Of a stretch of 64,000 bases of DNA, positions 14,134 to 38,765 are shown piece after piece. This DNA comes from Marsupella aquatica (lineage: Eukaryota; Plantae; Marchantiophyta). The stretch spans positions 8,187,241 through 8,251,240 of the forward strand of contig OZ316899.1 of the NCBI GenBank assembly GCA_973895155.1. The letters run 5' to 3'. The translations under genes and the position numbers were made by a program. Each line of letters opens with the position of its first letter. Positions within the stretch are counted from its first letter, which is position 1. The notes beneath the pieces were generated by a model that worked only from the letters and a program-made list of their open reading frames with translations, had not been told where the DNA came from and did not search any database.

Positions 14134-14237
14134 AATAAGTGGATCTTATCCTAAACTAACCAAGGCTCAACTAACCCTAGTAAGGCCAAACTAACTAAAG
14201 CCGACAACTCAAGTCAATTCCTAACAAATCTACGCTC

Positions 14238-16115: not shown

Positions 16116-16918
16116 CTATAGGCTAATTGTCTGGCAGACAAGGTCCACAACAATCTTTTGCCGCATGATGTCTATAAGTGCAGGGTCAAAGTTCAGTACG
16201 CCGCCTCCAGAAATATGCTCCATGTAGATAATGATATATACACCACAATTGTAATCATCCCCTTGACCTGTAATGTTATCTCGGTAAATGCGTGGCCATT
16301 GTAATGGACATAACAAGGTACGACCCCGCAAGATGGAGAGGTCCAAAAGAAACTGAGCTACTTTCAACACTTCTGTGCCATCCTGTGCTTCGGGCACAAG
16401 CGGATCAAGTAAATGCAGTTGCTGCAAGGTAGTATCAACCACAACTAGTACCCAGTGTTTTGGCCGGTAGACGGGGATTAAAACGTACTCGTGGTCCCAC
16501 ATTTAATGCCCCACCAATATGCCAACGTTGCATTGAAGTTATATTCCGGAGTTGCCATCACTTGGTAAAAATGTGTTGGCAATAACATGGCCTTGGGTTT
16601 ATGAAGGGTTTGTGCTCTTCGTTCCAGTAAAGCAATGTAAGCATTGATGACGTCGCAAGTGATCCATTTTTTTGGCCTCAAGCATTTTAAATGTGCCCTT
16701 GTCAAGTGCACGTCCTCGATTGTCACTATGACCTCTTTTTGGTCCGCCTTGGGGTCCAATGCCTTCTTCACTATTGCCAAAAATTTGGATGGTTGTTGTT
16801 GTGCGGGCACTCCTTTGTTTGCAAGCCCCACCTCTTTCACTCCTGCCCAGGGAGTCAGCCCCTCATTCACTGGTTGCTCAGGTCTCTCCTGAGCTGCAAT
16901 GAAGGTAAATTCATTCAA
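16116..16918 (-). pseudogene. Ulp1/SENP-family (peptidase C48) protease domain, frameshifted near 16490
   Basis: LKCLRPKKWITCDVINAY..LLPTHFY, then LIPVYRPKHWVLVVVD (His), LLDPL (Asp) and QGDDYNCGVY (Gln/Cys). Confidence 0.85.
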
Positions 16919-17324
16919 ACATTACTCTTTGGAATTGGAGCTTGATAATCTTATACTTACATGGTGAGTTTGGAGACTGTCACTTCCTACCGAGCTACTC
17001 TCATCCGATTGAGCTTCTTTTGCCCTATCATCGACAAATTTGAGAGTTTTCCTTTTTCTCTCTTTTACACAACGAGGTACTATTTCTTCATGATACGTAT
17101 CAGCAGCGTAGCACGGAAGGGTTAACTTCTCCGACGATAAATATGTTGAAGCTTCCTCCCACGCAAGCTTGACAAGCCATCTGTCCTGGCTGTCCCATTC
17201 CGCTGTAGCTGACTCGGTAGTCCTGTAGGGAACTGCTACTTAGTTATACTTAAATCCAATCAAATAATGTATTGCACCCAAAATAGACGTAAACAAGGAG
17301 GCATCTGTCGGGGAAGGTAGTCGA

Positions 17325-17890
17325 CATGGATCGGCGGATCTTGAAGAGGCCAGCCGAGATCACTCTTCCTCAGACGGATCTTGGAGAGGCCAGCCAAGAT
17401 GACTATTCCTGAGACAGATCTCGGAGACGCCAGCCAAGATGACTTCCTGAGACGGATCTTGGAGAGGCCAGCCGAGATGACTTCCTGAGACGGATCTCGG
17501 AGAGGCCAGCCGAGATGACTATTCCTGAGACGGATCTCAGAGAGGCCAGCCAAGATTGACTCAACCTAAGACAGATCTCGGAGAGGCCAGTCGAGATGAC
17601 TGTTCCTGAGAAGGATCTCAGAGAGGCAAGCCAAGATTGACTCTTCCTCAGACGGATCTCAAAGAGGTCAGCCAAGATGACTTTTCTTGAGATGGATCTC
17701 AGAGAGGCCAACCGAGATTGACTCTTCCTGAGACGGATCTCGGAGAGGCCAGCCAAGATGACCATTCCTGAGACGGATCTCAGAGAGGCCAACCAAGATT
17801 AACTCTTCTTGAGACGGATCTTGGAGAGGCCAGCCGAGATCACTCTTCCTCAGACGGATCTCGGAGAGGCCCGCCAAGATGACTCTTCCT
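17325..17890. repeat. Minisatellite, ~37-42-bp unit, about 14 copies
   Basis: Repeating CTTCCTGAGACGGATCTCGGAGAGGCCAGCCAAGATGA with small indels. Confidence 0.9.
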
Positions 17891-20124
17891 AAGTTGCATG
17901 TAGAGGAATGAATCTTGGCGAGGTCCACCAACATGCATCTCAAGTTAGGACTTGCCCTTGCTTGTAGAGGAGGCCAGACGCTATGAATGTCAGCAAGGTC
18001 AGCCGACATGCATACATATTGGCAAGGCCGCTAACTTGTATCCCTCTATTGTCAACCATTGCAATGAGCAAGCAAATATGAAATGAAGAACGTCAAACGC
18101 CAGAAAACTTACATGTTGTTGGGAGTACTGCCGGATTTTTCTTCTTGCGCTTTTCTAGATTGGCTTTTGAACGGACCACCTCTTCCTCCTTTGGGGAGAT
18201 CACTCCAACCAGTTCTGCCAGTTGGTCTTGCACACAAGTTCCAAAGTGAGGATAGGATTCAGTCCCAAACACCATCCGCCTGCAATTTTCACCGGCTTGA
18301 ATATTACCCCAAACTGTGGGTTGAAAGTGAGGATAGTTGCCCCAGGGTGTGTTGTATATTCGATGATACGTTGGAGCGTTGCTCACGACATGTGCCCGCA
18401 AAAGGGTCGTTAACCTGATTCTTCTTGGATGTATAGTTCGTTAGCCCATTCCTACTCTTCATATCAAGCTCTGCACTAATTGGTGCCACATCATCCTTTG
18501 GGCATATCTCCACAGTAGATTGAACCCCCACAGGTCTAGCTTGAGATATTCGCTCTGGATTGGCCAAACATATTCAGAGGTCAGACTTCCTCAGTTTAGG
18601 ATAGTAAGTCATTGGAATAAAAAATAAATGAAGAAGTAGGTAATTGATGGGACTTACTCGCTTCCCGGTCCTACCATCGTAGGTGGGTGTGTCGTTCCAG
18701 ATAAAGAAGCTTTCTTTCAACCCCCAGTTGGTATTCTCGTAAACTAATGCATCATAAATGCAAGTTGAGTGCCAAAGCAAACCATTGTGCACGATGGCAA
18801 ACAGTCCTTCGGAATCAAGGACATCTCAAGCAAACTCCTGAACCCGGTTCAAGTCGTCCTTTCGGAACAAATTCCACAACGGGGTGGACTTACCCTCGAC
18901 CATACGCGTGTCTGTTCCCATATGTATCAGAATTAAATCTGCACCAGTCTTCACTCCCTTCCCCCCTTTTCTCCAGGCATTTTGACACAAACCTTCTCGC
19001 AATAGCTTTCTGCACCATGAGATCAATTTACTAACTATAGGGGGTTCGGTACCTTCTTTAGCCGCATCAAAAAAAGTTGTAAGTAGATTTGGAGACCACC
19101 TAAAATACATATGTCTGCTCTGGGAAGACATGGTATTGGCGTAAGAACGCCTTACTCCTTCCACCTCAGTATTATCCTCTTCTCCCAGGGCCTCTTCATC
19201 CTCCTCAATTTCCAATTTGGGGTCAGGTTGGATGGTTGTGGGTGGAACCTCTCCAGTGCCGGGCGTGGGAGGCAACTCAGTGGGGGAAGAAAGAGGAGGA
19301 AATTCCTCGTCACGTTGTCGTGCCAAAAGATTTTGGCTCAGGAATGGCTTTTATAGGGGATGATGGGCCAGGCCTCCCGGTTGGGTTGCGTGCATGCTGA
19401 CTCGGAGGGGCTGCTTGGTTGGATGGATTGAGGTTTGGTGATTGGGTGACTTATCGTCACCAGGTTTGGTGTTTGGGTGAGCCACCAGGCTTGGAGTTTG
19501 GATGGGCCTCACTGATGGCAGCTGGCTCAGGCTGGATGGTTGGGTTTCCGATGCTACTTAAGACTTGAGCCTCGACTCATTGAGGTTGGCGGTTGTCTAT
19601 TGAGATTTGTTGAGTTGCGTTCTGTGAGTTCCGCTCTGTTCTGCGGAACTCGACTGTTGTGCGGCGGTTTTGGAGTTCTGGGCAAGTGTTGGATCCAGGT
19701 GTGGAGTTTTTGATCCAGGCAAGGATTTCTTGAGTTTGGAGCCTCGTTGGTCCAGGCCCGAGTTGCGTGTGAGCTGTTTTAGACTAGTGGAATAGCTAGT
19801 CGAGTTTTGGTTTTGTGAGCTAAGGAGGATAGTTTTTCCGTCAGATTTTGAGTAGTTAGTCACTCGAGGAGTTCTACTCGACAAGTTAGAGGTAGCGGCC
19901 CGCCGTAGGGCCAGCTACCAGACTCTTGTGGGCAAGCTTACTCGAGGGCACCTATTGTAACCTTTGTGAGAAAAGTAAAAAATATAAAGGAGTATGAGTT
20001 CGCTCCAAAAAGTGCCTATCGCCTGTCCCAATTGCAGCCATAAACGCGCAGTTTGCCCAAGGAGCCCCTTATTTTAAGTCCTTGCAACATTGGCGACCAT
20101 ACTAGGGATTCGCGATTGGATGAG

Positions 20125-23100
20125 ATGGGTGACTATGACAAAGTTGATCGGATCTCGAGCATCGTCATGTCGATGATGAGAACCATAAGGAAGGAAGAGC
20201 TTGAGGCGGAAAGGGCAAACATGGAAGCGAATAGAGCTACTCGGTGTCTCCAAGAGGTTTTGAAGGAGAATGGGCAGTTTGATGGGAGAAATGTGACAAG
20301 CTACCTTAAGTCTTACTTGACAGAAGCAGCTGTCTATAAGTTGGACGAAGGGACGGCGGTGAAAGAGTTCATTGTGCTGGTTGAGAAGGAGTTGAGTTTG
20401 ACGGTGCGGACCATCATTGAGTCAGCTGAGGGCTGGGATGACTTTGACCAAAAGATGAAAGAGGAGTTCCAAGCGGAGGATGCTGATTGGGTCACGCAGG
20501 CTACCTTCTTGGATTGGGTGAATGACAAGAACAAGAAGCTGAAGGGGCCGCAAGAGCTCCTAAGGGAGTTCAAGAGAAGGGTGTCTCAGTTACCAAAGTG
20601 GGATGTGGGAATCATCGAGTTGCAGCGCTCGACGCTCTTCTTGAGGGCAGCCAATGAGGACCTTTGAGAGGAGCTTGAGAATGCGATGGAGCTGCTGGAA
20701 CCTTCAAGAGTTACCTTGTCTAACAACTAGAACCAAGTTGAGAAAGTGGTGTCAAAAGTGAGCAATCGACACCGGCGGTGAGAGCTAGCCAAGGAGGCTA
20801 CCACTCTCGACCTAAGGCCGCCGGAACCGATATTGAGGAAAGGGAAGCGAGAACCAGCGAAGGATGAGATCAAACCATCAGTGGATGATCTCACAGAAAT
20901 GATGCAAAACCTGAAGATCTTGGCCGCACATGCGGTCAAGAATCCAAAACCGAGGGTTGCGAGTGCTCCCCAGAGGAAGCGAGAGATGCAGAGTTGGCCA
21001 TGCATGTCGTGCAACAGCAAAGAGCATGACAAACGGGAGTGCCTGGACCTGAGGGAAGCTACGGATAAAGGGCTGATCAAGTTCATCGGTGAAGTTGGTT
21101 AGAAAAAGATATCGTTTGCCGATACTGAAGAGCCGATTCCATTCAACTCCAACAAGGGAGGCATGAAGGCTTTGGCTAAGAAGCGAGCTGGGAAGCGATT
21201 CGAAGAGGCGTCCTCTTTGCACCTGGAAGTGAATGTTTACAATGTGGAGTTGGATGGCAATGTGACGGAAACGGACAAGTTTTACAAGCGCTTGGGGGAT
21301 CTGGTGCGAGAGAGATCCGGATGGAGTGACCCGGTGCTGATCAATGCGATAACGGTTGAGGTTGGGGCTAGTTGGGATGCCTCGGTCGAGTCAAAAAGGA
21401 AGAAAATTGACAAGGATGACACTTCGTCTCAATCAGGGGAACGAGAGAGGCGGGATACTCGAGACAAGGAAAGAAGGGTTAGGTTCAAAGAAGAGGAAAT
21501 GAGCGAGAAAGAGCCAGAGAAAGGGAAATCGATCAGGAAGGACCCGGGCTGGGTGCTTGGCAGGGATGTGGACCAGGCCATGTACCCGGAGGTTGTAGCT
21601 GAGAAGTTCTGGAGCCAATAGGCTCAAGGGTTTAACCAATGCCGAGTTCTTTGGTAGTATGAGGCGGGAGATCCAGGAAGCGATCTTGGAGAGATCCAAG
21701 AGGAAACGGATTTACAAAGAGGGCCCTCACACCTTGATGGGGGAGGCTGGCGAGACGGAAATTGGGAGTTTCCAAACTTACACTGCTGGGGTGTCCATGG
21801 GTTCAGGTAGTAAGCCTGTCGGCCCCGAAGAGTCAGACTTGGGGAAACCGAAGAGGGTCAAGTCCCTTGAAGAGGAGCTCATGGACTTGGACGAGGAGTT
21901 CTTCGATGCGGAAGAGGAGCTCATGGGAACCGGAAGCAAAGCTGAGTCTATGGCAAACAGGGACCCGACTGAAGGGAAAGAGCGAGAAGGCATTACTACG
22001 CAATCAAGGACCATTCATGTCATGGGCTCAATGAAAGGAAACGGTTATGCTTACTGAGATGGATACTGGGCTTGAGCAAGTCCCGAGAGCAAGTGCCAGT
22101 TGGAAGGAATGGAAGGCAAGGTACGGGCGCTCATTGATACTGGCTCGGAGATCAACTTGATGGATCCAAAGGTGTTTCAAAAGGGGAATTGGCCGGTGGA
22201 TAATGAGTTGCTTTGGAGTGTGAACTCGGTGATTTCAATGAAGGACTAGCTTTGGGGCGGATGTCTGAATGTGATGGTGAAGTTCAGGAATGTCAAGCAG
22301 GCTTGTAACATTTTTGTTCATGAGCACTTGTTGTTTCCGGTGATACTGGGCATGCCGTTCATCACTGAATGGAGGATGGAGACAAAGGTTCTGGATGATA
22401 CTACCTTCATGGTGAAGGTTCGAGGCAAAGATGATAAGGAGGTGGTTCAGTTTCCGGCGGTTCTACCTGGAAATGAGAGGAACCAAAAGCAACTGCAAGA
22501 TCCAACAACGGCAGAAGTTGGCATTGCTATGGGGGAGAACCGAGATGCTAAGATGGATCTAAGTGCAGAGTTCAAAGGGGAGCCAATTTTGGACAAAAGA
22601 TGGGGAGTCTAGTGTTCAAGGAAGAGTGTTACTCAGGAGAGCTACTGGACATTGGGAAGTATCTGAGTGACTTTGGGAAGCGGCTGAAACAGGATGGTGA
22701 AGAGTTCGAAGACATTTGAGTGAATTCTGATAAGTTAGAGAGGGCTACCTTTGGCGGAAACCTAAGGGCCCCATGCTAGTGTTAGATATTGCTCTAGTCT
22801 TGTGACTCATGAGCTAACCACAGTTAGTCTAACTCGGGTTAGGACTTAGCTAATGTTAGCGGTAGTGCTATTGTGCATATAGCCAGGGCTGATGCCAAAC
22901 CCTGGTGGAACTTAGGCTCATTGTTACGGAGCTAGTTGAGAGATAGGGAGAGCTTGTGCTGTGGATGCTTGGTATGGCTGGTCGGTCTAGAGTGCAATAA
23001 AGCTGTTGTGTGTTCCCGTGGACGTAGCCTCATGTGGAGGTGAACCACGTATCTCTCTGTGTCGACTATTGTGCGTTGGATGGTTCATGGGCTTGCTGTT

Positions 23101-23651
23101 ACAAATGTCGTCTATGCTCAACAGCTAGTACCGAGGAGAGTTGTCGATTCTAAGGATGAGCAAAGCAGATTTTGGAGGAAGTCTATGATGCTGAGGTCAA
23201 AGGTGGTTTGAAAGGAATAAGGGCGAAGGTCTATGAGCAGATCCGAAAGGAGTATTGGCGGCCAGATTTGTATTGGGATGTTCAGGAGTATGCTGACAAT
23301 CGAGGGATCCATCACAACTTGAAGAGGCAGATTCAAGAGCTTGATCGGATTGACTATCGAGTCGTTGACATACGGGAGAGAGTGAAGGTTTGCAAGGTGC
23401 AAACTAGAGATGAAATGGACTCAAGTTCCGACTTGAGTGAGTTTGAAGTCAAGGCGCTGGTCAAGGCGCATCCGTTGGACTTGAGTTTTGAAAGTGGCTT
23501 GACTGGTTCTGATTTAGATGAGTTGGACTTCGAGTTTCTGGAAAGTGGAGTGCCTACGGCCAAGTCTGAAGGCTTTGGGTTTGAGTTTCTTGAGGAGGAA
23601 GTGGTCCAGGCGCATGGCTCGAGTTTGGACTCAGACTTAGAGGAAATCTGA
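20125..23651 (+). pseudogene. gag (CMSCNSKEHDKREC knuckle), aspartic protease (ALIDTGSEINL) and a relic of the integrase zinc-binding region
   Basis: FDGRNVTSYL gag start; protease motif at about 22128-22160; GGLKGIRAKVYEQIRKEYWRPDLYWDVQEY resembles the INT N-terminal G-H-G..YWWP segment. Many in-frame stops. Confidence 0.75.
22780..23123 (+). mobile_element. Solo LTR related to the copia-2 LTR
   Basis: TGTTAG..GTCGTCTATGCTCAACA (344 bp), TSD GCTAG on both sides. Its 3' part matches the reverse complement of 7139-7260. Confidence 0.9.
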
Positions 23652-25019
23652 TGGATTGGAGCAGACCAGAGACTGCTTAGGTTTACTGGGGGAGGATGTC
23701 GTGCCAAAAGAATTCGGCTCAGAAATGGCTTTTATAGGGGATGATGGGCGAGGCCTCCCGGTTGGGTTGCGTGCATGCTGACTCGGAGGGGCTGCTTGGT
23801 TGGATGGATTGAGGTTTGGTGATTGGGTGACTTGTCGTCACCAAGTTTGGTGTTTGGGTGAGTCACCAAGCTTGGAGTTTGGATGAGCCTCACTGATGGC
23901 AGTTGGCTCAGGCTGGATGGTTGGGTTTCCGATGCTACTTAAGACTTAAGCCTCGACTCATTGAGGTTGGCGGTTGTCTATTGAGATTTGTTGAGTGCGT
24001 TCTGTGAGTTCCGCTCCGTTCTGCGGAACTCGACTGTTGTGCGGCGGTTTTGGAGTTCTGGGCAAGTGTTGGATCCAGGTGTGGAGTTTTTGATCCAGGC
24101 GGGGATTTATCGAGTTTGGAGCCTTGTTGGTCCAGGCCCGAGTTCCGTGTGAGCTATTTTAGACTAGTGGAGTAGCTAGTCAAGTTTTGGTTTTGTGAGC
24201 TAAGGAGGATAGTTTTTCCGTCAGATTTTGAGTAGTTAGTCACTCGAGGAGTTCTACTCGACAAGTTAGAGGTAGCGGCCCGCCGTAGGGCCAGCTACTA
24301 GACTCTTGTGGGCAAGCTTACTTGAGGGCACCTATTGTAACCTTTGTGAGAAAAGTAAAAAATATAATGGAGTGAGAGTTTGCTCCAAAAAGTGCTTGTC
24401 GCCTGTCCCAATCGCAACCAGAAACGCGTAGTTTGCCCGAGGAGCCCCTAACTTTAAGTCTTAGCGACAACGTGCTTTGCTTGGGCTCCCTTTGGGAGCT
24501 CTAGGTCGCCTAGTTTTCTTTCTTTTTAAGCCCTTTTCATTTTGCCGTGACAGTAATGGTGGCCGGTAAGGCATAGGAGAGATATCAGACAAGCGCCCTT
24601 CATCTCCGGACTGTCCTTTGTCCTCTTCCTCTCGCTCCTCTTCCTCTCGCTCCTCTTCCTCTCGCTCACCCACATCATCCTCACCTTGCTGCTTGGGAGC
24701 CAATTCATCTTGTACTTCAGGAGCCTCATGCGGAGGCAAGTCAAATTCTTGCAGCGGAGCCTCGTCTAGACCCAACTCAACTATTGGTTGTTTATCCTTG
24801 TGCCCTGGACCCTGCAAAACCCTTGGACCATCCTCAACTGCTGCCTTTGTAGCCGGCTCTACACCCTTGCTCTTGACAGAACCAAGTTCCGTTTGGATCT
24901 CTGCATGACCTGCATAGGATGCAAATTGATGAGCTTCATGATGGCAACTGCATCTCGGCGAGCCTCGCCAAGATTGGGTTCATTATATGCAAGTAACTTA
25001 TTACTCAACTAATACTTCA

Positions 25020-25175
25020 TCTTGGCAAGCCTCACCAACATCTGGATTGGACCAGACACTTAATCTCGGAGAGCCTTGCCGACATCTGGACTGGACCAGA
25101 CACTTAATCTCAGAGAGCCTTGCCGACATCTGGACTGGACCGGACACTTAATCTCGGCGAACCTTGCCAACATGA
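25020..25175. repeat. Tandem repeat, 44-bp unit, about 3.5 copies (intronic)
   Basis: GACATCTGGACTGGACCAGACACTTAATCTCGGAGAGCCTTGCC repeated. Confidence 0.85.
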
Positions 25176-25208
25176 GGGGTCTGGATTTCAAAGACCCTCT
25201 AAGTCATC

Positions 25209-28200
25209 TGTGATGCCTAGCCAGGAATCACTCGGCCAGTTAAGTGGGTAAAGCAGGAGTGCACCCTAGAAACACCTTAGTATAGGGACTAAACAAGGAA
25301 AATATAAACAATTAGGGGCGACTATGGAACCCGGGCCGAGGCCGGAGGTAAGGACGCTGGGGGTGAAAACTCGATTAGGGTTAGGGCGCGTTAAGCGTCG
25401 GCGGCTAGGAAGGATCAACGGGAGGAAGGACCGGAAGAGGAGAGGGGTAAGGAGCGCTTGCAGGAGATGGTGGCTCATTTGCGAGCACGAACTAGGCAGA
25501 CGACTACGGGAGGCCAACTACTGTCAGCTGCTTACGCAAGCACTCGGGGAGAGAGTAGATACCGACGATCGACCTAAGGAGGGTATGAGCAACGTCAATC
25601 AAGCGGCACATTTTTGGGGATGCCTGTTCGAATGGGCAACTGAGTACATCAAGACTTATGAGGACGAAGAATCAGAAAGGGCAGCTCGAGAACGGCAGGA
25701 GCTCGCTCGATTGTGGGAGCTGCAGAAGACGGCTTTCTTAGGAGGCGAACTCATCAAGGCCGAGTTCTTGTGGACTCCTACTTCCAATCAGCTTGACGAT
25801 CTTCTGTTTTGCGAAGACAGAATCATCGGCATTCGAGAGGCCATCAAGAACTGCAACGACATACACTGGGAATTGAAGGGTAGCACAGAAAGGTGGACCC
25901 CGGCAACGGTGCTAGGAGAAACCTCCACGGCAGCCGAGATGAAGAGGAAGGGAGCCGTCAACGATGAAGCCACCCCGACAAAAAGAACAAGGTCGGCGGC
26001 ACCAAAGAAGCCAACCGAGCAGCAGAGCAGGAGGTAGGGAGAAGCCGAAGAGGAGGAGGTTGATCCCATTAATGCCATTCCAACCAGGGATGACACCTGG
26101 AAAGGCTGGGCGGCAACCCTACCAGCGGAGGTGCAACTACATTTTGCACGGGAGGAGGATGCATGCTTTACGGCCATGCAGACCAAGAAGTACCAAGGCT
26201 TCATGGCCGGATCCGGCTTAGAGGCCTTTGTAAGATTACCATGGCTGAAGCCGGAGGTACCGGATTCAGACCTATTAGAATTCGTGGGGTCATGGGAACC
26301 CGAGACCAATTGCACGAGGATATATGGGAAGGATTTCTATCTTACTCCCAAGGTGATTGCCGAAGTGTTTGGCTTGCCAATAGGCAATAAGACCAAAGTT
26401 GATACCAGGAAGACCTTGCCTGACAAGGAGTTCCGGTTGTTCCCCGGGCCATCAACGAAGAATGGCTTCTTCCGGAACACCTGCACCAACCCGCACATAG
26501 GAGAGATGATCGACTTCTTGCGGGTGACCATGCATTGTAACTTGCCGAGGGCAGAGATCGGCAAGGCACAGGTCTATCTGGCAGAGAGGCCAGACCCAAG
26601 CCGGGACTACAACGGGTACCTCCTCAACCAATTGAAGAAGATCTTAAAGGAGGAGCAACAGGTAATCGGCATGGGGAGCGTGTCGCGACTTGGCTATCAC
26701 ATGCCGCTGTTGTGCCGGTATGCCAGAGGTCAGACCTTTGCCCCAGTACTTCCCCTGCAGGTAAGGGCACCCGAGGAAGCTCCAGCACCGAGGCCGGTAG
26801 CAGAGAAGCCTCAACCACTTGATAGCCCTACGATTGAGCAGGTGTTCAGGCCAAGGAAGGAAGACTTGCCGATGCAGCAACCAAGCATGCAGAATCTGCT
26901 GGAAATGCTGGAGAAGGAAAAGACGGCACTGGCACCAGCTTCGGCAGCGGCACCAATACAGGACACTGCCCCAGAGGTCAACCTAAGCAGACTTAGAAGG
27001 GAAAACCCCTTTACCAGAAATAAGGAGAGAATCAGGCCAGAATCCAAGCCGGGTGTTCGAATATACGTGGGAGTCTCAAGCTCTGAATCTAAGGCAGAAT
27101 TGCCTGAAGCTCCTACCGGCGAAGACGAGAGGGAGAAGCCGGAAGTCCAAGGGTTGGAGGAGGCAGTGGAGGACTGCAGCCATGATAACTCCGGCTATGG
27201 GTCGGACCATCACGTTCCAGGAGTAAGGACCTGTGGCCGGTTTATCCCCACACTTCCAAGGGTAGTACGAGGGGACCCCAACCAGCAGAGTAGCCCTGAG
27301 TCTCCCCCACCAGATGTTGCTCCCCCGAGCTTTGACGGCATAAAACAGACGGCGCAAGAATTTCAGGAGCAAATCAGGCAGGAAGAGGAGGCAGCCCTGG
27401 CTAGGGAAAAGGATTTGCCAGGAGGAGATTGGCCGGAGGACATCAGGCGGCTAGCCGAAAAAGGAAGCAAACCTCTAGCCACGATTGAAGAGATCCGCAA
27501 GACGGCTTGGGAGCAGAGGCCGCGATGGGCAATGCCGATCTTCTACTTACTCCACCTACGCTAAGAATAGAGCCATGGAGTATGGTGAGATGTGTGGGGA
27601 ACTTGCGCTCGGCATCTTTGCGGAGGAGTTGGAGGTAGGACCCTTTTTCCATAGGGAGCAGTTGGAGAAGCACCAATTAGAAGAAGCGGTGGCTTTAGAG
27701 AGAACCAAGAAGGACGAGGTCATCCGACGGCTTAGGAGGATGGAAGCCGAAATTGAAGATCTAAGGGCGGCCAAGAAAGCCCAAGATGAACTGCGGATTA
27801 AGCGGCATGAGCTGAACATCATGCAGGGGCAGTTGGACACAGCGCAAGCTGATAGTCAGATTATCAAGGATAAACTGACTCACACCCAGGGAGAATTGGC
27901 CGACGCAATCAAGGACAGGGATAAATGGAAGAAGGAGGTGAGAGACGCAGAGGAGACCCATATAGCAATCAACAACCGGGTCACGGCGGAGACTCAGAGA
28001 AGGGAGAGGGCGCTGAAGGGAGAGCTCGAGGTCATCCGCAGAGCCCTTGAGCAGAAGGAGGCCGAGTTAGGGAAATCCTATCAAGGGATTATTGCGCTAC
28101 AGCAGGAGCTTGCGTCCCTAACGGCCAGCTTCAAGGCCGACCTTCGGGAGAAGGATGCCCAGCTCGACCAGACTTATGCCAAGATGAATAACATGGAGTC

Positions 28201-29885
28201 TGAGGTCATAGCGGAGCTCGACAAGGAGCTAAGAGCAACCCAGGAGGAGAGGGCTACCACCAAGAAGGAATTGGAGGAAGCCCACAGGGAATTGGAGGAA
28301 GCCAAAAATGAGCTGGAGGAGGCACGTAAGGACCTGGATGAGACCCAGGAGGAGTTGGAGGAAAACACGAGGAAGATGGAGAACCTACAACGGCGGGCCG
28401 ACAACCAAACTGAGCGGCTGAAGAAACAAGCCGCAGTATTTAAATGCTTAGCTGCATCAGGTCCATCTCCCGTTGGGGCAAACCAGTTACCAGGGGTGGT
28501 AATTGCCGAAGGACCAGCCGTGACACACGGCCCGGTGCCGGACGTTGGCGGCAAAGGGAAGGAACCGGCTGTGGAGATAGTGAAGAAGAAGAAGCGGAAA
28601 CCTTCGGGGTCCGGAGGTTATTCGACCCCTCAAGCCGTACTCAAACCGGCACCAACCTCCGGCATGAACACGGCAATAGATTCCGCTATCACCAAAGGTG
28701 GGGATGATGCGGCCCAAGCCGAACTACTCAGTAATGAGGCCGGTATCTCAGATCCACCTCTTGAGCAGGCCAGGGAGACAGTGGCCGAAGCTGAGGCCGT
28801 AGCCGAGAATGATTCCCGAGCCGATGCCGAAGCCGAGGGTGGGCCCAGTCAGGCCGATGAAAAGTTGACTCGGTCAGAGGCAGGTAATCTGTTAGAGGAT
28901 GAACCTACGGCAGTGGCTGAGGAGGAAGCGTTGGGGGCGTCCATTGAGGATCCACCACCGGTGTCGTGACGGTGCAAGGGCGCCGTTCCTTTTAGGAAGG
29001 GCGGACGTGGAGGTAGGAGGCGTGAGTGGGCAGGGCGGGCGCTGATCTCCAAGTTTAGGATTAGGATCAGGACCAGGAGGCGGCCCTGACACTTAGCTTA
29101 GTGGAATTGCGGTTCCACGAGCAGGAGCAACACTTGTGCTCCTGCCTTGCTGTACATAGGTAGATTCGGGCAGGTAGATTACTGTTAGGTAGGTTAGGCT
29201 TACGCTGCAAAGAATTAGGCGGATCCACTACCAGGATAAGTACCTGGGCAGCGGGGAGCTCAGGGCCTCTTCTTTAGCAAGTTTTTAGTTTGCACCAGCC
29301 GGGCTGGGATCAAGTAGTAAGAGAAGCTCTCGGTTAGTCATACCGCGACCTTGTGTATATTCATGTTTCCTCATGCCTAAGAGCTGAATAGAGTTGGCCT
29401 CACGGCTTAGTTCGCAGAACTTGTGTATGAGATGTACTGTTTGTATGGCAAGTGCATGGTATGACTCAGTCAGAAGGAGTCATTTTGCTATTTGTGTGTC
29501 GCATTAACTTGTGTGAAGAGTGCCCACATCAACCAGAAGGAAGAAAGTAAGCAAGGGAGTGAGAGTTGGATGTGTCGAGCTGAGAGAGGTCTTAGCGGCT
29601 TAACCAAGCCTATTGGGGATCATTCCGACGGCGGAATCCAAACATACCTAACCAGAAGGAGAGGAAGACAAGGGAAGGCCTAGATTAGGCCGGCTACGTA
29701 TCTCATGACCCGATGAAGGATCTGTCCCGTATATGTGTGTAAAAGGCTAATAGTAATAGTAGAAGGAGGTTAGCAGCGTCCCATGCCGCTAAGCCGCGGA
29801 AACGGCCTCGCCAAGCGTGAAACCTGCGGGAATCGGCTTGAGCTGGGGGGTTTCTTGGGTTTAGGGAGCCATGGGACGCACCACA
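25209..29885 (+). mobile_element. 4.68-kb protein-coding solo LTR (copy A) of the long-LTR gypsy family
   Basis: Starts TGTGATGCCTAGCC and ends GGACGCACCACA. TSD TCATC at 25204-25208 and 29886-29890. Colinear along its whole length with LTR 59165-63845. No gag or pol inside. Confidence 0.92.
25324..28969 (+). pseudogene. LTR-encoded accessory protein (~1,200 aa reconstructed): conserved LPW..EF..FGLP domain plus long coiled coil
   Basis: ORFs 25324..26037 and 26131..27564 are in the same frame, separated by one TAG that is CAG/Gln in copy D. A single frameshift near 27540 leads to ORF 27485..28969, which is rich in E/K/L heptads. Confidence 0.8.
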
Positions 29886-31069
29886 TCATCCACCCTCACC
29901 AAGATGAGACCCTCATTCCTTCCGTGTTATGTCACCAACCCCAGCCAAGGTTATTTCCAATGCAAGCCACCACCTGATTTGAAAGGAATTGAGTAATACC
30001 TAATGGGGTCTTTGTTGGAGTGCTTATAGAATCTGACTGACTAGCCTCGGCGGATTGTTCTTTGTCAACCTTCTTCTTGCCTCCTTCCTTTCGGGCCTTT
30101 TTCCCATCATAGGCTTGGTCCATTGGGATTATGGCCTCCAACGCTATTGCTTGGGGCATAGAGTCCATCAATTGTCGTAGCTTGGATATATCGTAGTAAT
30201 TTGTAGGCTCCTGTTGGTCCTTCAGCTTCATTGCACACTCCTTCTCAGCGTCTGTGACGCCGCCGGTACGGTGGGTAATGAGTGATTTGGCCTAACGACG
30301 CTTAGCACACGCGTTAGGGGTATCTTAGGCCGTAATTATTAGCATAACGACAATATTTAGGTAGCCATTATGAGTAGGAAATCATTAGTCAATAAGGGGC
30401 ATTCGTATTCGGGCTGGCGGTGGATCGCCATTTGCACGCCCGGATTGCAAGCGTGTAATGGGCCCTCCACTCTTTCCCCTTGAGTCCGTATAACAAATTT
30501 TGGGAGGCGGCCACTGACATGCGCTGACCCGGACTGGCGGAGTGGCCGGTACACTGCAAGCATGAAAGGCTCGGCCTATAAGCAACGAGGAGGCGACAAG
30601 CGATTGACGAGCTCTTAGGGTATAAAAAGGGGGCCGATCCTTTGCAGTGCACCAGTTCTTCAGCCCATGCGCCAGCTTCAACCCCAGTTCTCTTGCTTAT
30701 CCTTAGTCGCCTTCCATCTCCTTTGAATGTCGCACACGATCCTTTCCAGTTTGGCCATACGATTTTGGACGCAATTCTTGTCTATTGGAGGGCACTTGGC
30801 CGACTCGTTGAAACACACCAACCCGTGACGATACAAGATTGAACACGAGTACAAGAGAGCCACCTGCCTAGCAGGCCGCCATCACTATCTCCTTAACTTT
30901 GATTACTCGTCCCAGAGCAAGCTTTACCGACCCAAAGAAATATCAGGGTACTTCTTTGACGGAGGCAAATATATCGGCTTTGGGGAGGCATTGCTTTGGC
31001 TCCCGGACAAGGTCTTCAATACCCGGGCACGATCAACCTACAACAGCACCATTTTGACCACATCCCCGC

Positions 31070-32859
31070 TTGGGTCCAGGACATCATCAACAGCTAGTCC
31101 AGCGCTACCCTGATACAAGGGCGTCTAAACTTGCGTCAGAAAACCTCTACCTGCACCTACAGAATTTCATGGCAACCACACCATCGACCACCGATGCCAG
31201 CCCAGCCGTGCCCGCACCAGCACCAGCTCAGGCTCAGGCTCCGCCTCAACTTAGCCAACCCCCGCCACCAGTCGCCCCACCCCTACAGGTGAGATCCGTC
31301 ATCAACGTTGTGGACCTCAGCGACGACAAAGAGGCTACCTTACCCCTGCTCAGGCGGCCTAGAGGAGCAAGTACCCAGGGAGCCGACACTACATCGGCCC
31401 TTCCCCAGGCCCAGACCAGAGTAGCGGCTCCAGCGGACAACACGGTGACCATAGCCGCCCCGGCCCCAATACTAACGGTGGTGGCACTACCTACACCCGA
31501 TCAAGAGGATGGGGAGGTGTCACCCTCCCCGAGCCAGTCTCGGGGAAAGAAGAGGAAGGAACCCGCAGCTATATCCGGACTACCCATGGCCACGGTAGCC
31601 GCGGCCAAGGTAACAATGCACCGCATGGGGGAAAACGTGCATAAGAACATCCTCCACCCCAAACATGCGATGTACTTGAAGACTCAGGGGTTTGAGCACC
31701 TCGCCTCCCTCCCCTGGAACACCTGCAGATACTACGGGGAGGACATGACGGAGTTCGTCAAGAATTAGGACGACATCCGTCAGCATAATCGGCCGCGGGG
31801 GAGGAATATGTCCCTCACAGAGGAGCGGCTCAGGATGATCTTTGGGCTACCCGAGGGCGATCACCGAGTCGAATCACGGGCTCCCGAGGGCAAGGGAGCC
31901 AAGTTTCAATCCTCAAGTTTTCCCTCCGAGGGGTCAGTGGACAACGGGTTTGTGATGAGGACATGCCTCATCCCCGAGATAGCTGAGCAGTTGGAGTTCC
32001 AGAGGTACGCCCTCCACATGATGGAACCCCGGGGTGAGATCTCCGCTGCCTAGGTTATCCAGGTTGAGAACTATCGACCTAGGAAGTGGGCTTTGTACTT
32101 CGCTAAGAAGTTCCATGAAGAGATGGAGCGGCAAAGGAAGTTGCTATACATCGGCTGGAAGGCGTCTTTTGTGAGCCACATCAAGATCATTCTCGAGTGG
32201 TACGCCCGGTTTGATCAACAAACCCTTCCCCGGGTCAACGTAACTAAGTTGGTCCCAACTAAATGGATCTTCCCGACCTTGAGAGACAGCCTCAACCCGA
32301 GGCCTGAAGTCTGGCGGCGACGCAGGCCTCACCCATCCAACCTCCACAGGTAGCGGTAGCCGTGGCCGAAGAAGTACCGGAAGAGGCAGTGATCGCAACC
32401 TTAGACATGATCAACCAGGTTGGGCCTGGTGCAGAAGTTGGGGCGGTGGAGGCCTTGTCCGAGCCCGAGGGTCCAGAAGACCCACTAGTGGCTATTCCAG
32501 AGGACAGCCCGATGGTGGAGGAGGACACTCCAGCCCCTTCCAACACTACATCCCCAGGGCTGGATGTCACTACCCCGGCTCCCACGCGAGTTAACGTCTG
32601 CCCGTGCCCAACTCCAGACGGGCATAACCTGGACCACCCGGAACTCTTCATATCAGGTATATTTCTGAGTGTGCTTTTGGGAGATTTCTCCCAACAGATA
32701 GCCCAAGATACCGGGGAGTTCATGGCTCGGAAGGTAGCCTACTTCTTCAATCAGGAGTTGGTTACCGCAGTAAAAGCAGGTCGGGCTCAGTCAGAGGCCC
32801 TTCAGCGGATAGAGCGGTACCGGGTTGAGTCCGTGTACCTAAAGGATGAAGTTGCAGCT
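31070..32859 (+). pseudogene. Homolog of the LTR-encoded accessory protein (family 2), continuing in frame at 63851-64000
   Basis: GFEHLASLPW..MTEFVKN..LTEERLRMIFGLPEG..DNGFVMRTCLIPEIAEQLEF. Removing the insertion gives KDEVAA|QEVELLQLRPKV..KIAHLQTQVDSL (coiled-coil-like). Confidence 0.75.
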
Positions 32860-33103
32860 TGTGGTGCGTCCCATGGCTCCCTAAACCCAAGAAACCCCTC
32901 TGCACAAGCCGATTCCCATAGGTTTTGCTCTTGGCTAGGCCAATTTTGCGGCTATGAGACATGGGACGCTACTAACTTCCTTCTACTACTATTTAACATT
33001 TTACTCACATATACTGGACAGATCCTTCATCGGGTCATGAGATACGTAGCCGGCCTATTCTAGGCCTTCCCTTGTCCTCCTCTCTCGGTTTCCCTTTAGA
33101 TAT

Positions 33104-34493
33104 TGTGGTATGGGTGTCCCTGCAATTTTTTCTGGAAACTTGTTTATTTTTAGCATATCACAAGATTTACTTACACTTTAGACACCTTCCGGCCAACATT
33201 TACTTGTTCTGGACACTTATAGAAATATTTGACATCTCCGGCTTTCCTGACGATTCCTAGTGTACTTTGCCCGACGCTGTGACCAGCGCCCGTTTCTTTT
33301 ACTCAAGACGCTGCGGAAGCGTCCAACCTCCTCATGACGCTTTTGGCAGTGCCCGACCGCCACCAAGACTCTATGAGGATTTCGACCGACGCTGTGGAAA
33401 GCGTCAGCTTCAACACACGACGCTGTGAGCAGCGTCCACCCTAGTATTGACGCTGTGAGCAGTGTGAGCAGCGTCCGTTGGTTTTACTTAAGACGCTTCT
33501 AGCAGCGTCCAGATTCTCCCGACGCTTCTAGCAGCGTCCGCTCAACACTTAGTTTTTGAAGTAGATTACTAGTAAAGTAGTATTCTACCACCCTTGTTGA
33601 AGTACTTATGCTGTGCTTCTCCCTTGTTTAGTTTTAAGCTTGGAAAGGCACGACTGTTCTTACCTCCTCCATTTTAGGATTCCAGCACTTATAAGACAGA
33701 GTAGAATGCTCATTTGAAGTAGAGAGAAATAGAGTTAATACTGTATTCAGAATTGAGTCTTCTGAATAGTTTTCTCCTCCTTCCATTATAACAAGGCATG
33801 CTGTGAGTGTTTTGTATGGAAGTAAAGCTATATTGATTGAAGTTAAGATTGAATTTAAGAGATTCCTGTGGTGATTGAATTCAGTTGCAGATTTCTGAAA
33901 CTCGTATTGAATTCACTGCTAGGCTTGCTTGCAGAGTCGGGATTCGCTAGCCAATTCAAGAATAGTTAATGATAAATGAGAAGTAAATTCTGATTCTCAG
34001 AGTAGTTAGTACTGTTGCTTTGATTCTGGAATATGGTTTAGAGTTTGACTGAATTGCGTATCGCTGATGTCAAACCATGTTGACGGCATTTTAAATCATA
34101 TCATTCATTTGCAATCAGAAAGCTTCTGCTTCATCAGATTGAGAATTCCATTATCATTAACCTTTGTGTTTTGAAGAGTGAGATGGATGAATTATGAGAT
34201 AGATTTCATGTCTATACTGAGCCCAAATCCTTTCTGAAGGAGTGGCAGTAGCAGTTTGTAGTCTCTAAATCCTTACTCATTTCTTCTCTAATTCATAAAT
34301 CAGAAGTTCAGTTACTTTGTTGTTTGTTTATTCGATTTTTTTATTGAGAAGTGAAGTCAACATAGAGCTCAAGACTCTAAATCACTCGGAGTGATAAAAG
34401 TTATACAATTCATTCTGAAATCTGTTCTTAAAGGGATCGAAACCCTGGTTTTAGGTGAGGAGAGTCACTTTTGATACTTAGCACTATACGACA
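33104..34493 (+). repeat. 5' LTR of the Athila-like element
   Basis: TGTGGTATGG..CTATACGACA, followed by the PBS. Confidence 0.95.
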
Positions 34494-35711
34494 TCTTTTT
34501 GGCGCCGCTGCCGGGGAACGAATTTAAGATTGAATTGACGTACAGGCAGTGTATGCCAGAAGGAGCTAGACGGGAGAGGAATTCACGTTCTACTATAATT
34601 GTGAAGATGCGTCATCACTCCAGTTAAAAAGATGAAGAGCTTCCATTTCGAGGTGATGCCGTACTCTATCCAAAGCGCCCCGGAAGCTCTCTTAAGAGTA
34701 TTGGAAAAATTTGTGGTGCCAAACTTAAGAGAAGAAACCGCCCTCCCACCAGAAAAGGCCTCACAGAGAGGAGCTGTTGCTCGTCAAGTTGCTTTGGAGA
34801 TAGTCGAAGACACCAAAGACACTTTGAGTGACAAGTGAAGTTATTCTAACGTTGCTCGGGACGTATGATTTGTAAAATTGTCCAACCATCCTGGTTCGTG
34901 TGACCGATGCCACCTATCCGATCTTTGGGAACATTAAGAATTAGGAATTTGAGGAATCGTTATGTTAATTCTTGGGTTCTGAGCCTGAGAGGGAGGAATG
35001 GCATACATTGGTTAACTATCACCTGGTGGGAAGATGAAAGTTTGCATTTAGTAATATTAAGGCTGAATGGTAGGATCACACAGGAGTGATATTTAGTCAT
35101 TTCCATTCGGGAGTTAGCGGAAAGAATCATGCACCAGGAATTGCGTAGAAGATTAGGAAGGAGTTAGACGTCTGATTAGTAGGATGGCCTAGTGTAGCGT
35201 ACCATGTGGTAAAGAAATTTCAGGGTGAAGGAAGTCGGAGATTATGGGGAACGCCCGGTTCCAGTAATCGCCACCGTAAAGGAGATAAGGAAGGACGCCG
35301 CGAAGAGCGTCCAATGCGATTCGTCCCAGAAGATTCCGCAAGTCAGAACGCTTCGAGTAGCGTCCGATCCCAGTGGACGCTGTGAGCAGCGTCCGGTGGA
35401 ATCTGTGACGAACCAACGTGCGCGACGCTTCTGGTGTGCCTTTCCGCGTCTCAACCTGAAGGACGCACCAGAGAAAACGAGGTTTTAGAATCTCGGCTGG
35501 TCACTGAAGGGAAGTATTAGCTACGGGATAGCAAGGGGGAGGAATCATGCAAGGGATGTTGAACGACGCTACGGGAAGTCACTTTGAGGAAGCAGGTTCA
35601 TATCTCCCGGAGTGGGGTGATAACGTCGCACCTAAATGGTGACTCCTTGCATAAAGACTCCTGAGGAGCGGGTCTGGTGTCTCAAAATCACCCGTGCTTG
35701 GAGAATGAGGG

Positions 35712-38700
35712 ATGTCTGAGGGAGATCCACCGAATAAAAGAAAACCTACCAAGACCTCCAGTAATTCGGATGCTGCAAAATTAGTAGTGACCCCTCGCAC
35801 ATTGTTACCCGAATTCCAGTCACCAGGAGCACCTGCACCGGGTAGTGTGTGGAAACAAGTGGGATCTATTCAAGAGGCAAGTGGCTCTTTGGAAAGGCCC
35901 ACGTCGACCCGACCCCTGTTTGTAAATCTTCGTTCAGGTCCAAAACTTATTGGTTCTCAAAAGACCAAGCTCCGCCAGCAGACAGTACGTTCGGTGAACC
36001 AAATTGACTCTGGTGTGGATAGTACCACTGAGAGGGCCTTATCTCATACCGAAGGAAGAAATTTGGGTTTGCCCGAGAATACAGTTGCAGAATCGCTGGC
36101 CCAGGATAATTCTGTCGATCTTTCACAATTGGATAATCCAGAACCACTGAGTGAAGCCGGTGGTTCGTCTTCTAGTGAGACAAGCAGCAGTTCAGGCTTG
36201 GGCAGCCCAAACCCATTTGCTACCCGATCAGCTCTTCCTTTCGTTACCCTCCTAGCTCCAACCACGATGGCTCGAAATAATGTGAGGTACGACCGGTTCT
36301 TCGGTACTTCCAAGGAGGATGCAGAGGTGTATTTGAAAGAATTTGAAGCTGCAGCTGCATCCAATGGACAGAGTCAAGACGCTGAAAAAGCCAATCTGTT
36401 TGGTGGTCTAATGAAAAAGGGTGCTCAGAAATGGTATGACCGTTTTCCGGACAAGCAGGATTGGGGGAAATTGAAGGCTGCTTTCTTGGCCAAATATAAA
36501 GAAGAAGGAGCAGCTGCGCGTGCCTTTGCCCGAATCTCACATCTGCACATGAAGAAACATGGGTCTGTGAGGAAATATGCCGACAAATTATTGGATTTGG
36601 TAGATCAATATAATCCAGCTACCTCGAAATCTACTATCAAGGACTGGTTTATTAACGGTTTACCCTCCAGGATTGCTCGTTACGTGAGACGAGAAGGTGG
36701 CACCACTTTGGAAGAAGTACAAGAGGCAGCCCAGAAGTACGTAGACTCGGAGATTTCAGAGAGAAAACGAGTTAAGAAGGACCTGAAGAAAGACAAAAGA
36801 AAGAAGAAGAAAACGTCCAGGTCTAAATCTGACTCGGAGACGGAATCAAGTGAAAGTAGCACTAGTGAGGAGGACGAGAGTACAAATTCGAGCACTAGTG
36901 ATAGTTCAAGCTCAAGTTCCGACTCAGAATCCGTTGCTCCTAAAAAGAAGAAATCCTCTGTAAAAGGGAATAATAAAGTTCCCAACCAGAAGAAGATGGA
37001 TCGCATGATGGAAGAACTCTCTGGCCAATTGTCCAAGTTGAATGTCAATATCGCCGCGGTAAAACCAGTACGAAGGTTGCCTGCTCCCATGAGAATGAAC
37101 GTATGGTGCACCCGATGCAGTCAGCAGGGCCATTACCCGAACGAGTGCCCCACATTACGAACCCCGGTGAATTATGTAGATGGTCAAGAAGAGGCTGAGG
37201 AGTATGAGTACGATCCCACGTATACCGTCCAAACAGCACCCCCTGGACAGTATTTCCCACCACCTCCTGCTTCCAGACCGACTTGGGGACCACCTAAGCC
37301 CACTTTCAATAAACCAACGTCAAGACCACCCATGGGACCCCCGGGAGGATACCCACCACGAGGAATGCCGCGTCAAAAAGGGGCTTGTTGGAATTGTGGC
37401 CAACCTGATCATTATTCACCCCAGTGCCCTTATCCCAAACAGGAGGTGGGGTATACACCTGTCTGTGGGAACTGTGGAAAAGAAGGACACTTACCGGTGG
37501 AATGCCCGAATCCGGCTAAGCCTAGGCTGATGGTTCGATTTGCTCAAGAGCCAGTTAAAGAAGCAAGTCGACCTGAAGCCAAGATTCGGATGATTTATTC
37601 TGAAGAGATGGAGCAATGCAGCTTCATTCAACATATGGATGTAAATCGGGTGGAATTAAAGCCAGATTCACTTTTTCATCAACCAGTATCCGGGGTGGTG
37701 CCTGATGTCTTGGTAAGTCATTTAGTGAAACCTGAAGTAGTTGGTATGCCGAATGATCGAGTTCAGAATCGGGATAAAGTTCTGACTAATATTTACGCAA
37801 CTACTCGTTCGAAGAAAAAGGAGACCAAGAAGCACGAGCATCAGAAGGTCGCGAAAGCTCCCAAGGATGAAGGGCGCAAGCCATGTAAGGAAGGCCTCGA
37901 CAAAGAAGACGACCCTGCTTATGACCGATATGACCCAAAATACTTCTTGCCCGACATCTCTTTGGAAGTGAAAGACCATCTGGAAGAGCTAGTTAAGGAG
38001 CAAGTGCAATCTCCTAACCCACCAGTAGTAGTCAAAGCTAAAGAGCCACTGAAAAATCCAGGTTATGATATTGTTGAAGATGTCAAGAATCATCCTGCAC
38101 ATATCACCATTGGGGAATTATTACAGGACAATCCGGTTTATAGGCGACAGCTGAGGAGCCTCCTTGCAGGAAAACGGAGGAAGAAGAAGTTACCTTCTGT
38201 GGATGTGCTACGAACAGAGTGGGAGGACAAAGGACCGATGGAAATTGAGGTTCAAATCCAGGGGTGTGTCATTCGGAGAGTTCCTGTGGATGGAGGAGCC
38301 AGCGTTAATCTGATTACACAGTCAGCAGCATTTAATTTGGGTTTCACTAAGTTTGAGCCCACTCCCAAGATTTTGCGCATGGCGGATCAGTCTCGTGTGG
38401 TACCCATAGGGAAGCTGACCAAAGTAGAAACTTTGATTGCTGGTGTCCCTTTTCTGTTGGATTATGTGGTTATTAATCCGGAAATACCATCCAGCTTTCC
38501 TGTTTTGTTAGGCCGACCATGGTTGTATAAGGCTCAAGTTCAGGTTAATTGGCAATCTCAAGAGCTTTCATTTGGGAAGCCTAAGGTGACTGTTAGTTGG
38601 GTTCCGGAACCACATTTTGGAGAAACACAAACAGATGATGGGTACACCTCGGATTTTTCGACCTCTTCGCTAGTCCTGCAGCCATTGGAATTTGAACTGG

Positions 38701-38765
38701 AGGAAGTTCGTTACTTGGAAGTTTATCTGTCTGATGCTCCCATAAAACCAACTAGGCCCTCCTGA
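35712..38765 (+). CDS. gag: Gag plus aspartic protease (three CCHC zinc knuckles)
   Basis: 1,017-aa open ORF. Capsid-like RYDRFFG..DWFINGL; knuckles CTRCSQQGHYPNEC, CWNCGQPDHYSPQC and CGNCGKEGHLPVEC; protease VPVDGGASVNL..LLGRPW. Confidence 0.95.
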   Translation: MSEGDPPNKRKPTKTSSNSDAAKLVVTPRTLLPEFQSPGAPAPGSVWKQVGSIQEASGSLERPTSTRPLFVNLRSGPKLIGSQKTKLRQQTVRSVNQIDSGVDSTTERALSHTEGRNLGLPENTVAESLAQDNSVDLSQLDNPEPLSEAGGSSSSETSSSSGLGSPNPFATRSALPFVTLLAPTTMARNNVRYDRFFGTSKEDAEVYLKEFEAAAASNGQSQDAEKANLFGGLMKKGAQKWYDRFPDKQDWGKLKAAFLAKYKEEGAAARAFARISHLHMKKHGSVRKYADKLLDLVDQYNPATSKSTIKDWFINGLPSRIARYVRREGGTTLEEVQEAAQKYVDSEISERKRVKKDLKKDKRKKKKTSRSKSDSETESSESSTSEEDESTNSSTSDSSSSSSDSESVAPKKKKSSVKGNNKVPNQKKMDRMMEELSGQLSKLNVNIAAVKPVRRLPAPMRMNVWCTRCSQQGHYPNECPTLRTPVNYVDGQEEAEEYEYDPTYTVQTAPPGQYFPPPPASRPTWGPPKPTFNKPTSRPPMGPPGGYPPRGMPRQKGACWNCGQPDHYSPQCPYPKQEVGYTPVCGNCGKEGHLPVECPNPAKPRLMVRFAQEPVKEASRPEAKIRMIYSEEMEQCSFIQHMDVNRVELKPDSLFHQPVSGVVPDVLVSHLVKPEVVGMPNDRVQNRDKVLTNIYATTRSKKKETKKHEHQKVAKAPKDEGRKPCKEGLDKEDDPAYDRYDPKYFLPDISLEVKDHLEELVKEQVQSPNPPVVVKAKEPLKNPGYDIVEDVKNHPAHITIGELLQDNPVYRRQLRSLLAGKRRKKKLPSVDVLRTEWEDKGPMEIEVQIQGCVIRRVPVDGGASVNLITQSAAFNLGFTKFEPTPKILRMADQSRVVPIGKLTKVETLIAGVPFLLDYVVINPEIPSSFPVLLGRPWLYKAQVQVNWQSQELSFGKPKVTVSWVPEPHFGETQTDDGYTSDFSTSSLVLQPLEFELEEVRYLEVYLSDAPIKPTRPS

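Follow-up and report, generated by a model that had tools for sequence, protein, structure and literature searches.

How a protein-coding gene comes to lie inside a long terminal repeat (LTR), and what it does there, is the question raised by positions 25209–29885 of a 64,000-nucleotide stretch of the liverwort Marsupella aquatica (contig OZ316899.1, positions 8,187,241 to 8,251,240; the whole stretch is called the window below). A preliminary description, made from the letters of the window, had presented this locus as a solo LTR flanked by a target site duplication (TSD) and carrying an accessory gene without gag or pol. Our analysis confirmed a solo LTR here (copy A) and assigned it to a family of Ty3 retrotransposons. 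As the best explanation of the whole (probability roughly 0.68), we propose that LTRs of this family carry a conserved gene for a protein with a VANC/PMD-like fold and a coiled coil, that the gene is broken in A, and that its product likely aids resistance to silencing.

Copy A (plus strand, 4,677 bp, TG...CA) is bounded by exact copies of the TSD TCATC at 25204–25208 and 29886–29890, as the preliminary description had stated. Its termini, TGTGATGCCTAGCCAGGAAT ... GAGCCATGGGACGCACCACA (TGTGATG from 25209, CACCACA to 29885), recur in copies C and D of the same window; the claim that it shares the termini of the long LTRs holds for these two but not for copy B, which starts with TATG. We compared four public runs as contigs, whose depths serve only as a rough hint of copy number. 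Contigs in three of the four (X1, X2, and X3) join 25203 to 29886, with five letters that fit either side, so an unoccupied site of A exists. No gag, pol, primer-binding site (PBS), or polypurine tract (PPT) was found beside A by flank inspection, Pfam, and a PPT scan, and no internal repeat was found within it. Aligned end to end, A and D are 83.7% alike over 4,577 columns, and A and the main piece of B (the only piece aligned) are 83.5% alike, against 95.3% for B and D, which bears out the description of A as diverged in DNA. The most conserved portion of A is its noncoding 3′ 916 bp (28970–29885, plus strand), where the A–D divergence of 0.11, against a synonymous divergence (dS) of 0.50, points to a likely cis-acting LTR core. 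Near the other end, two words are invariant in the alignment of A, B, C, and D: a TATA-like word (25300–25314, plus strand), the best conserved of its kind in the LTR, which lies 92 bp from the LTR start and is a candidate promoter of the LTR gene, and a putative telobox-like word, TTAGGGTTAGGG (25372–25386, plus strand).

The family is best seen in a full Ty3 element at 32860–63845 (minus strand). Its 5′ LTR (copy D, 59165–63845) is followed by a PBS, TTTTTGGCGCTAGATGGAGGGG (59143–59164, minus strand); in X2 (18 contigs, agreement 0.66) and X5 (one contig), loose ends that continue past the last base of A, on the 29886 side, carry this same sequence. Then come a decayed gag-pol (51025–56547, minus strand) with zf-CCHC, reverse transcriptase (RT), RNase H, and integrase matches in Pfam, a PPT at the end of pol (51039–51054, minus strand), and the 3′ LTR (copy B), whose main piece spans 46653–51036 (minus strand) and whose last 244 bp lie at 32860–33103, beyond a nested element. 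AGCTG flanks the outer ends of D and B and, together with the PBS after D, the PPT before B, and gag-pol between them, identifies the two as true LTRs. The order RT, RNase H, integrase (Pfam matches at 52600–53658 and 51028–52482) is that of Ty3/gypsy elements. The RT is 61% identical to that of the nested element, 67–68% to three proteins of the liverwort Calypogeia fissa, its closest named relatives, and 42–48% to the angiosperm matches checked. Together with the C. fissa homologues of the LTR protein given below, this points to a liverwort as the probable host. Pfam found neither an additional RNase H nor a chromodomain in this element, whose pol is decayed; the liverwort Tat Z1/Z2 elements are also described as having no additional RNase H (PMC10508981; here and below, published work is cited from the parts of each text available to us). 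By sequence, the element is likely a member of the Athila clade. An integrase-based locus search returned no loci in viral contigs and four short, distant loci in metagenomes. Copy C, a solo LTR of a third subfamily (56868–58768, plus strand; TSD GGTTC), has lost most of the gene in an internal deletion of ∼2.7 kb; it sits antisense in the gag region of its fellow family member.

The accessory open reading frame (ORF; 25585–28969, plus strand, ∼1,130 codons) lies within each of the two LTRs of the full element and also within the solo copies. Counted from the ATG at 25585, A carries one stop (26035–26037) and one frameshift (a 2-nt gap at 27539), D six stops and one frameshift, and B five stops and four frameshifts, so that A does have the fewest lesions of the three, as claimed. 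An upstream ATG at 25324 was rejected as the start: the stretch 25324–25584 shows no coding signal (ratio of nonsynonymous to synonymous divergence, dN/dS, 0.89–1.16) and has frame-breaking indels in B, C, and D, which makes ATG 25585 the better start. Stops shared among copies occur at the columns of A 25687 and 28082, one a CG-context codon in B, C, and D, and another in B and D; they reflect either parallel deamination or a full element already broken before it moved.

The ORF has very probably been under purifying selection between subfamilies, as judged from a codon alignment of A and D. Over 1,170 codons, counted after codons with a gap or stop had been excluded, substitutions at the three codon positions numbered 168/151/309, a third-position excess and not the even spread that, by the preliminary description, would have refuted its claim. 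Divergence was 0.50 at synonymous and 0.13 at nonsynonymous sites (dN/dS = 0.27, bootstrap 0.22–0.32), a ratio never approached by 300 same-spectrum neutral permutations (mean 0.70, minimum 0.545). The synonymous fraction was 0.489 against an expected 0.318, and none of 400 context-matched permutations reached it. Constraint was strongest in the globular core (dN/dS = 0.115 over 215 codons, protein identity 89%, in keeping with the claim of a nearly unchanged core), and the ratio rose to 0.16 in the N-terminal block, 0.21 in the coil, and 0.60 in the tail. B and D, which were identical at insertion, served as a control and were near neutral (7/400 and 35/400 permutations reached the observed value). 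Selection between subfamilies, combined with this near-neutral control, argues that the constraint on the gene arose along active lineages, likely while elements were active; the signal is silent on the solo copy. The coil is a predicted long coiled coil (27660–28440, plus strand), for which the matches to ATG16 and Filament were weak and below cut-off. No transmembrane segment was found (the highest 19-residue hydropathy across A's three pieces was 0.94), and the LTR protein is thus not env-like.

For the core domain (26122–26745, plus strand), an exhaustive search of 1.84 billion sequences returned 21 relatives at E ≤ 0.001; a word-based search for longer relatives yielded none among 419 candidates, and an alignment search only two proteins among 7,995. 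In Calypogeia fissa, two unnamed gene models encode homologues of the LTR protein. A profile built from 16 relative stretches recovered A, B, D, and an element E elsewhere in the window (31637–32116, E = 4e-31), and it gave a weak match to the nested element's extra ORF (15 bits at E = 0.001, where 200 shuffles gave at most 2 bits). Separate profiles of the core group and the nested-ORF group aligned over 152 columns (E = 9e-5). In the ESM Atlas, the nested ORF falls with Transposase_32/ATHILA clusters at 0.93 with 176 shared features, and A's core, at 0.84–0.85, with two clusters that agree in length, size, and families, which we take as a lead only. Neither the core nor its homologues reached the gathering cut-off of Transposase_32 (PF20167) or ATHILA ORF-1 (PF03078); P0150 scored 15.7 bits (E = 0.014) against a cut-off of 45. 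Sequence searches of the PDB with the core gave nothing at E ≤ 1 and two chance rows at E ≤ 10.

A structure model of the core from a trimmed 23-row alignment (pLDDT 86.5, pTM 0.85) was compared with 48,161 chains in VIA, and three scored Z ≥ 2: VANC21 (9lnk_A) at 7.5, and the next at 2.2 and 2.1. The VANC21 match aligned 199 of 208 residues (root mean square deviation 4.1, 8% identity). VANC21 was also the top Foldseek row (TM 0.45, all others ≤0.19; E = 0.78). The gap to the next match and the full coverage argue for homology between the core and VANC21, and a VANC/DUF1985/PMD fold is predicted, with moderate strength, over the core domain. VANC21 itself recognizes a short motif of the element that encodes it and strips methylation (PMC5735166); PMD domains resemble the DUF1985 domain of VANC, and PMD-A proteins are retrotransposon-encoded (10.1101/2024.09.27.615353); and coiled coils are predicted to mediate oligomerization of both VANC and the Athila domain (PMC13547354). 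We hypothesize that in active elements the protein would, in the manner of VANC21 and MAIL1/MAIN, oligomerize, bind the DNA of its family, and oppose silencing by methylation or Polycomb. We hold such DNA-binding, anti-silencing action at about even odds.

A role other than anti-silencing, with the same fold used for integration targeting, particle assembly, or RNA export, is a substantial alternative that we place somewhat below an even chance. It draws on the mere 8% identity to VANC21, on a search of the LTR that showed no target-like motif array, and on the unproven functions of plant extra ORFs (PMC7264820). Yet the sole solved match binds and demethylates the DNA of its own element (PMC5735166), proteins with the structurally similar PMD counter Polycomb silencing (10.1101/2024.09.27.615353), and the missing transmembrane segment speaks against an env-like function.

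The entry of the ORF into the LTR probably has a simple history, to which the nested element offers a guide. In that element, the order is pol, a PPT copy, a 345-nt spacer to the ATG, the extra ORF, the true PPT, and the LTR; the PPT copy (41762–41777, plus strand) lies 23 nt past the pol stop and differs at one of 16 positions from the true PPT at 45245. An extra PPT has also been reported in the linker of Athila4/Calypso (PMC2829016). In the family of A–D, the sole PPT overlaps the last integrase codons, the integrase frame crosses it to a stop 12 nt inside LTR B, and the ATG of the ORF lies 376 nt into the LTR. Because the family's only PPT is at the upstream position, the LTR boundary has likely moved, taking in the accessory gene. 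On this scenario, an Athila-like ancestor with the order pol–PPT–ORF–PPT–LTR would have fixed the upstream PPT as plus-strand primer, so that the spacer, the ORF, and the old LTR fused into one long LTR; the conserved 3′ 916 bp of the present LTR would be the old 3′ end and LTR, and the ORF would most likely lie in U3.

The ORF might instead lie in R/U5, downstream of a transcription start near 25335; it would then resemble a 5′ extra ORF and come first among the cistrons of the genomic RNA. The position of the best-conserved TATA-like word fits such an arrangement, as does the segment after the ORF, which is rich in TGTA words and resembles a 3′ untranslated region. However, a strong-stop cDNA of >4 kb would be required, the order of pol, PPT, a spacer of ∼350–380 bp, and ORF parallels that of the neighboring element's 3′ ORF, and the most conserved part of the LTR is at its 3′ end. 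We consider this placement doubtful.

Several observations weigh against the explanation of an LTR gene with a VANC/PMD fold that entered U3 and counters silencing. Pfam returned nothing for A's core or 18 homologues beyond chance-level rows, and the hhalign probability between the core group and the paralogue group was only 59%. The first core model was poor (pLDDT 65); it placed VANC21 second at Z = 3.6, drew no Foldseek match at E ≤ 0.001 from either PDB or BFVD, and had no match in pdb_via. The fold match of the better model is itself moderate, with Z < 8 (which, as the tool warns, can reflect a common arrangement), identity of 8–12%, and the Foldseek E value given above, and a common fold by itself is no demonstration of function. 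No 6- or 8-mer exceeded shuffles in the noncoding ends of A, C, and D, as a VANC-target-like motif would; a 15-bp repeat in ∼2.8 copies is found in the LTRs of B, C, and D. The NG86 dN/dS of B vs. D was 0.44, borderline above neutral expectation in one direction and not fully explained, and the direct comparison covers four copies (A, B, C, and D). A relic of the downstream PPT was not found in A at ≤4 mismatches.

The components of the proposed explanation differ in strength. That the ORF lies within the LTRs, that it was selected between subfamilies, that A arose from a full element by recombination, and that the ORF left in A is a pseudogene are all very probable; the PPT switch is probable, and the anti-silencing action stands at the even odds stated above.

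With respect to copy A itself, the TSD and the empty site suggest that a full element inserted here and that LTR–LTR recombination would then have deleted gag-pol. The preliminary description had added that this recombination leaves the accessory gene behind. What remains is a solo LTR with a real protein gene, but its reading as a working gene cassette is not supported: the stop at 26035 is private to A, with 98–100% of the depth in all four runs reading a sense codon there, and the private disabling lesions make the leftover ORF a pseudogene. With this stop and the 2-nt gap at 27539, the locus lacks the intact ORF of a domesticated host gene. Eleven private changes of A in the ORF, a small and nonrandom sample of sites where nearly all depth differs from A among 40 rows of ∼615, comprised seven nonsynonymous changes, three synonymous changes, and one stop, with B and D matching the majority at 10 of the 11; by sequence, they look like neutral decay.

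If the ORF is in U3, its expression from a solo LTR would require a promoter within the initial 376 bp. One may therefore ask whether solo copies are working genes driven from such a promoter, with intact solos acting in trans and A only recently broken. The two words ahead of the ATG that do not vary among copies (TATA-like and telobox-like), the smaller number of lesions in A than in B or D, the open codon that nearly all depth shows at A's stop, and the known promoter within U3 for the sag gene of mouse mammary tumor virus (MMTV) (PMC4667437) would all be expected of working solos. Both solos in the window are nevertheless disabled (A by its stop and frameshift, C by its 2.7-kb deletion), and 8 of the 11 listed private changes of A are nonsynonymous or nonsense. 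Moreover, 96% of the B–D differences in the coding part are at C or G, with the highest rate at CG and CHG sites, a concentration that fits methylation of the A–D family. We regard working solos as unlikely. That the 4.7-kb unit is a self-moving nonautonomous element rather than a recombination remnant is highly improbable: the 64 kb hold a single paired element but two lone copies with TSDs, which might suggest it, but A has no internal repeats, PBS, or PPT, the PBS follows the same ends in other copies, and an excess of solos is ordinary (e.g., 429 solos vs. 162 complete elements in Retrosat2; PMC3485330).

Among the closest known systems, MMTV sag is a protein gene inside the LTR (U3) that persists in solo LTRs (PMC4667437); 490 of 527 sag contigs were without other retroviral genes (PMC4667437). 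Unlike sag, the gene described here belongs to a plant Ty3 family, encodes an unrelated protein, is much longer, and has its ∼1,130 codons wholly inside the LTR. The Athila 3′ extra ORFs (Transposase_32, PF20167; ATHILA ORF-1, PF03078) are likewise sense-strand accessory ORFs past pol (PMC6317226, PMC11728184, PMC7264820). The Atlas features point toward these families, no additional RNase H was detected in the decayed pol, and a paralogue occupies the usual slot 13 kb away; the ORF of the A family, however, lies past the PPT and is thereby duplicated in both LTRs, and it does not reach the Pfam cut-offs. Published plant extra ORFs are placed in the internal region in the texts available (PMC7264820, PMC6317226, PMC11728184, PMC11963269). 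VANC21 of VANDAL21 (PDB 9LNK/9LNJ; DUF1985) and the PMD proteins MAIL1/MAIN share with the LTR protein a globular domain, whose predicted fold matches over 199 of 208 residues, a coiled coil, and encoding by transposons (PMC5735166, PMC13547354, 10.1101/2024.09.27.615353). VANC proteins, as these sources describe them, are nevertheless encoded by dicot Mutator-like DNA transposons (VANDAL) with tandem target motifs, whereas the core studied here sits in a Ty3 LTR, is 8–12% identical, and showed no motif array in its LTR; the LTR protein is not itself a VANC, although its predicted fold is VANC-like. LTRs of >3 kb, an extra ORF, and many solos are also known from Retrosat2/RIRE3 and further plant elements with long LTRs, but these group with another lineage and their ORF0 is described as lying upstream of gag-pol rather than in the LTR (PMC3485330). 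Our literature searches, which covered the titles and abstract openings listed and may have missed a case, returned no report of a plant ORF inside an LTR.

Plant LTRs are usually viewed as noncoding and solo LTRs as inert scars, and here a selected gene of ∼1,130 codons lies inside an LTR, while the neighboring element suggests a simple route of entry, the PPT switch. The fold match offers a testable function, putative DNA-binding anti-silencing, for a class of retrotransposon extra ORFs, and leftover LTRs of this family carry a gene that, if intact and expressed, would likely aid escape from silencing. For annotation, solo copies are a hazard because they resemble orphan genes. A wider generalization is speculative and, in our judgment, improbable: an anti-silencing gene of VANC-like type would have been relocated to the LTR by bryophyte Ty3 elements, perhaps in two families (A–D and element E); LTR–LTR recombination, the usual route by which hosts disarm elements, would spare both promoter and counter-defense gene; intact solos would be dispersed, trans-acting anti-silencing genes; and the "env-like" ORFs of Athila/Transposase_32 would be the retrotransposon counterparts of VANC.

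The nested Athila-like element (33104–46652, plus strand) is very young, with 1,391-bp LTRs that have one difference and 5-bp flanks that differ at one base (GATAT/GGTAT); its frames for gag, for pol, and for an extra protein of 881 aa are long and open. Its extra ORF (42122–44695, plus strand) occupies the usual slot between pol and the 3′ LTR and encodes a distant paralogue of the LTR protein. The word GACGCT is clustered at 33273–33538, 35306–35570, 41870–42040, and 45431–45696, that is, in the LTRs, the leader, and the pol-to-ORF spacer, often as spaced palindromes (GACGCT-N5/6-AGCGTC). Each LTR of the element has 14, against a median of 6 and a maximum of 12 for the top 6-mer in 100 shuffles. 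These clusters are candidate binding sites for the nested element's own VANC-fold protein.

Element E (30253–32859 and 63846–64000, plus strand), the target into which the full element inserted, starts with TGTGACG at 30253 and encodes the closer paralogue of the core domain (31637–32116, plus strand) ∼0.9 kb in, with no PBS-like site evident before the ORF. Among the rows listed, mixed loose ends and an empty-site contig support this 5′ end; the other end lies beyond the window. Element E may represent another family whose LTR contains the ORF.

Copy A had also been placed antisense in an intron of a decayed Ulp1 gene. The intron placement is plausible, since an in-phase GT–AG pair on the minus strand (29999/24910) brackets A in a predicted intron of the unit with the Ulp1 (Peptidase_C48) domain (16119–16502, minus strand). 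The unit, however, is multi-copy, as summed contig depths in X1 and X2 that reach the thousands roughly hint, and thus likely belongs to a transposon and not to the host's own genes; it also carries a weak DUF4283 match. The unit spans 14827–30252 (minus strand), with tandem repeats in predicted introns (17335–17890 and 25038–25173) and a DUF4283-like frame downstream. Elsewhere in the window, a 5.1-kb LTR element with no recognized RT (19316–24469, plus strand) has 774-bp LTRs that are 5% diverged and a TSD in the CACGT/ACGTG region; it holds a reversed 218-bp piece (22905–23123) that resembles LTRs at 7139–7481 and 13791–14134. Decayed Ty1/copia elements (Retrotran_gag_2, rve, and RVT_2) occupy 3848–14134 on the minus strand.

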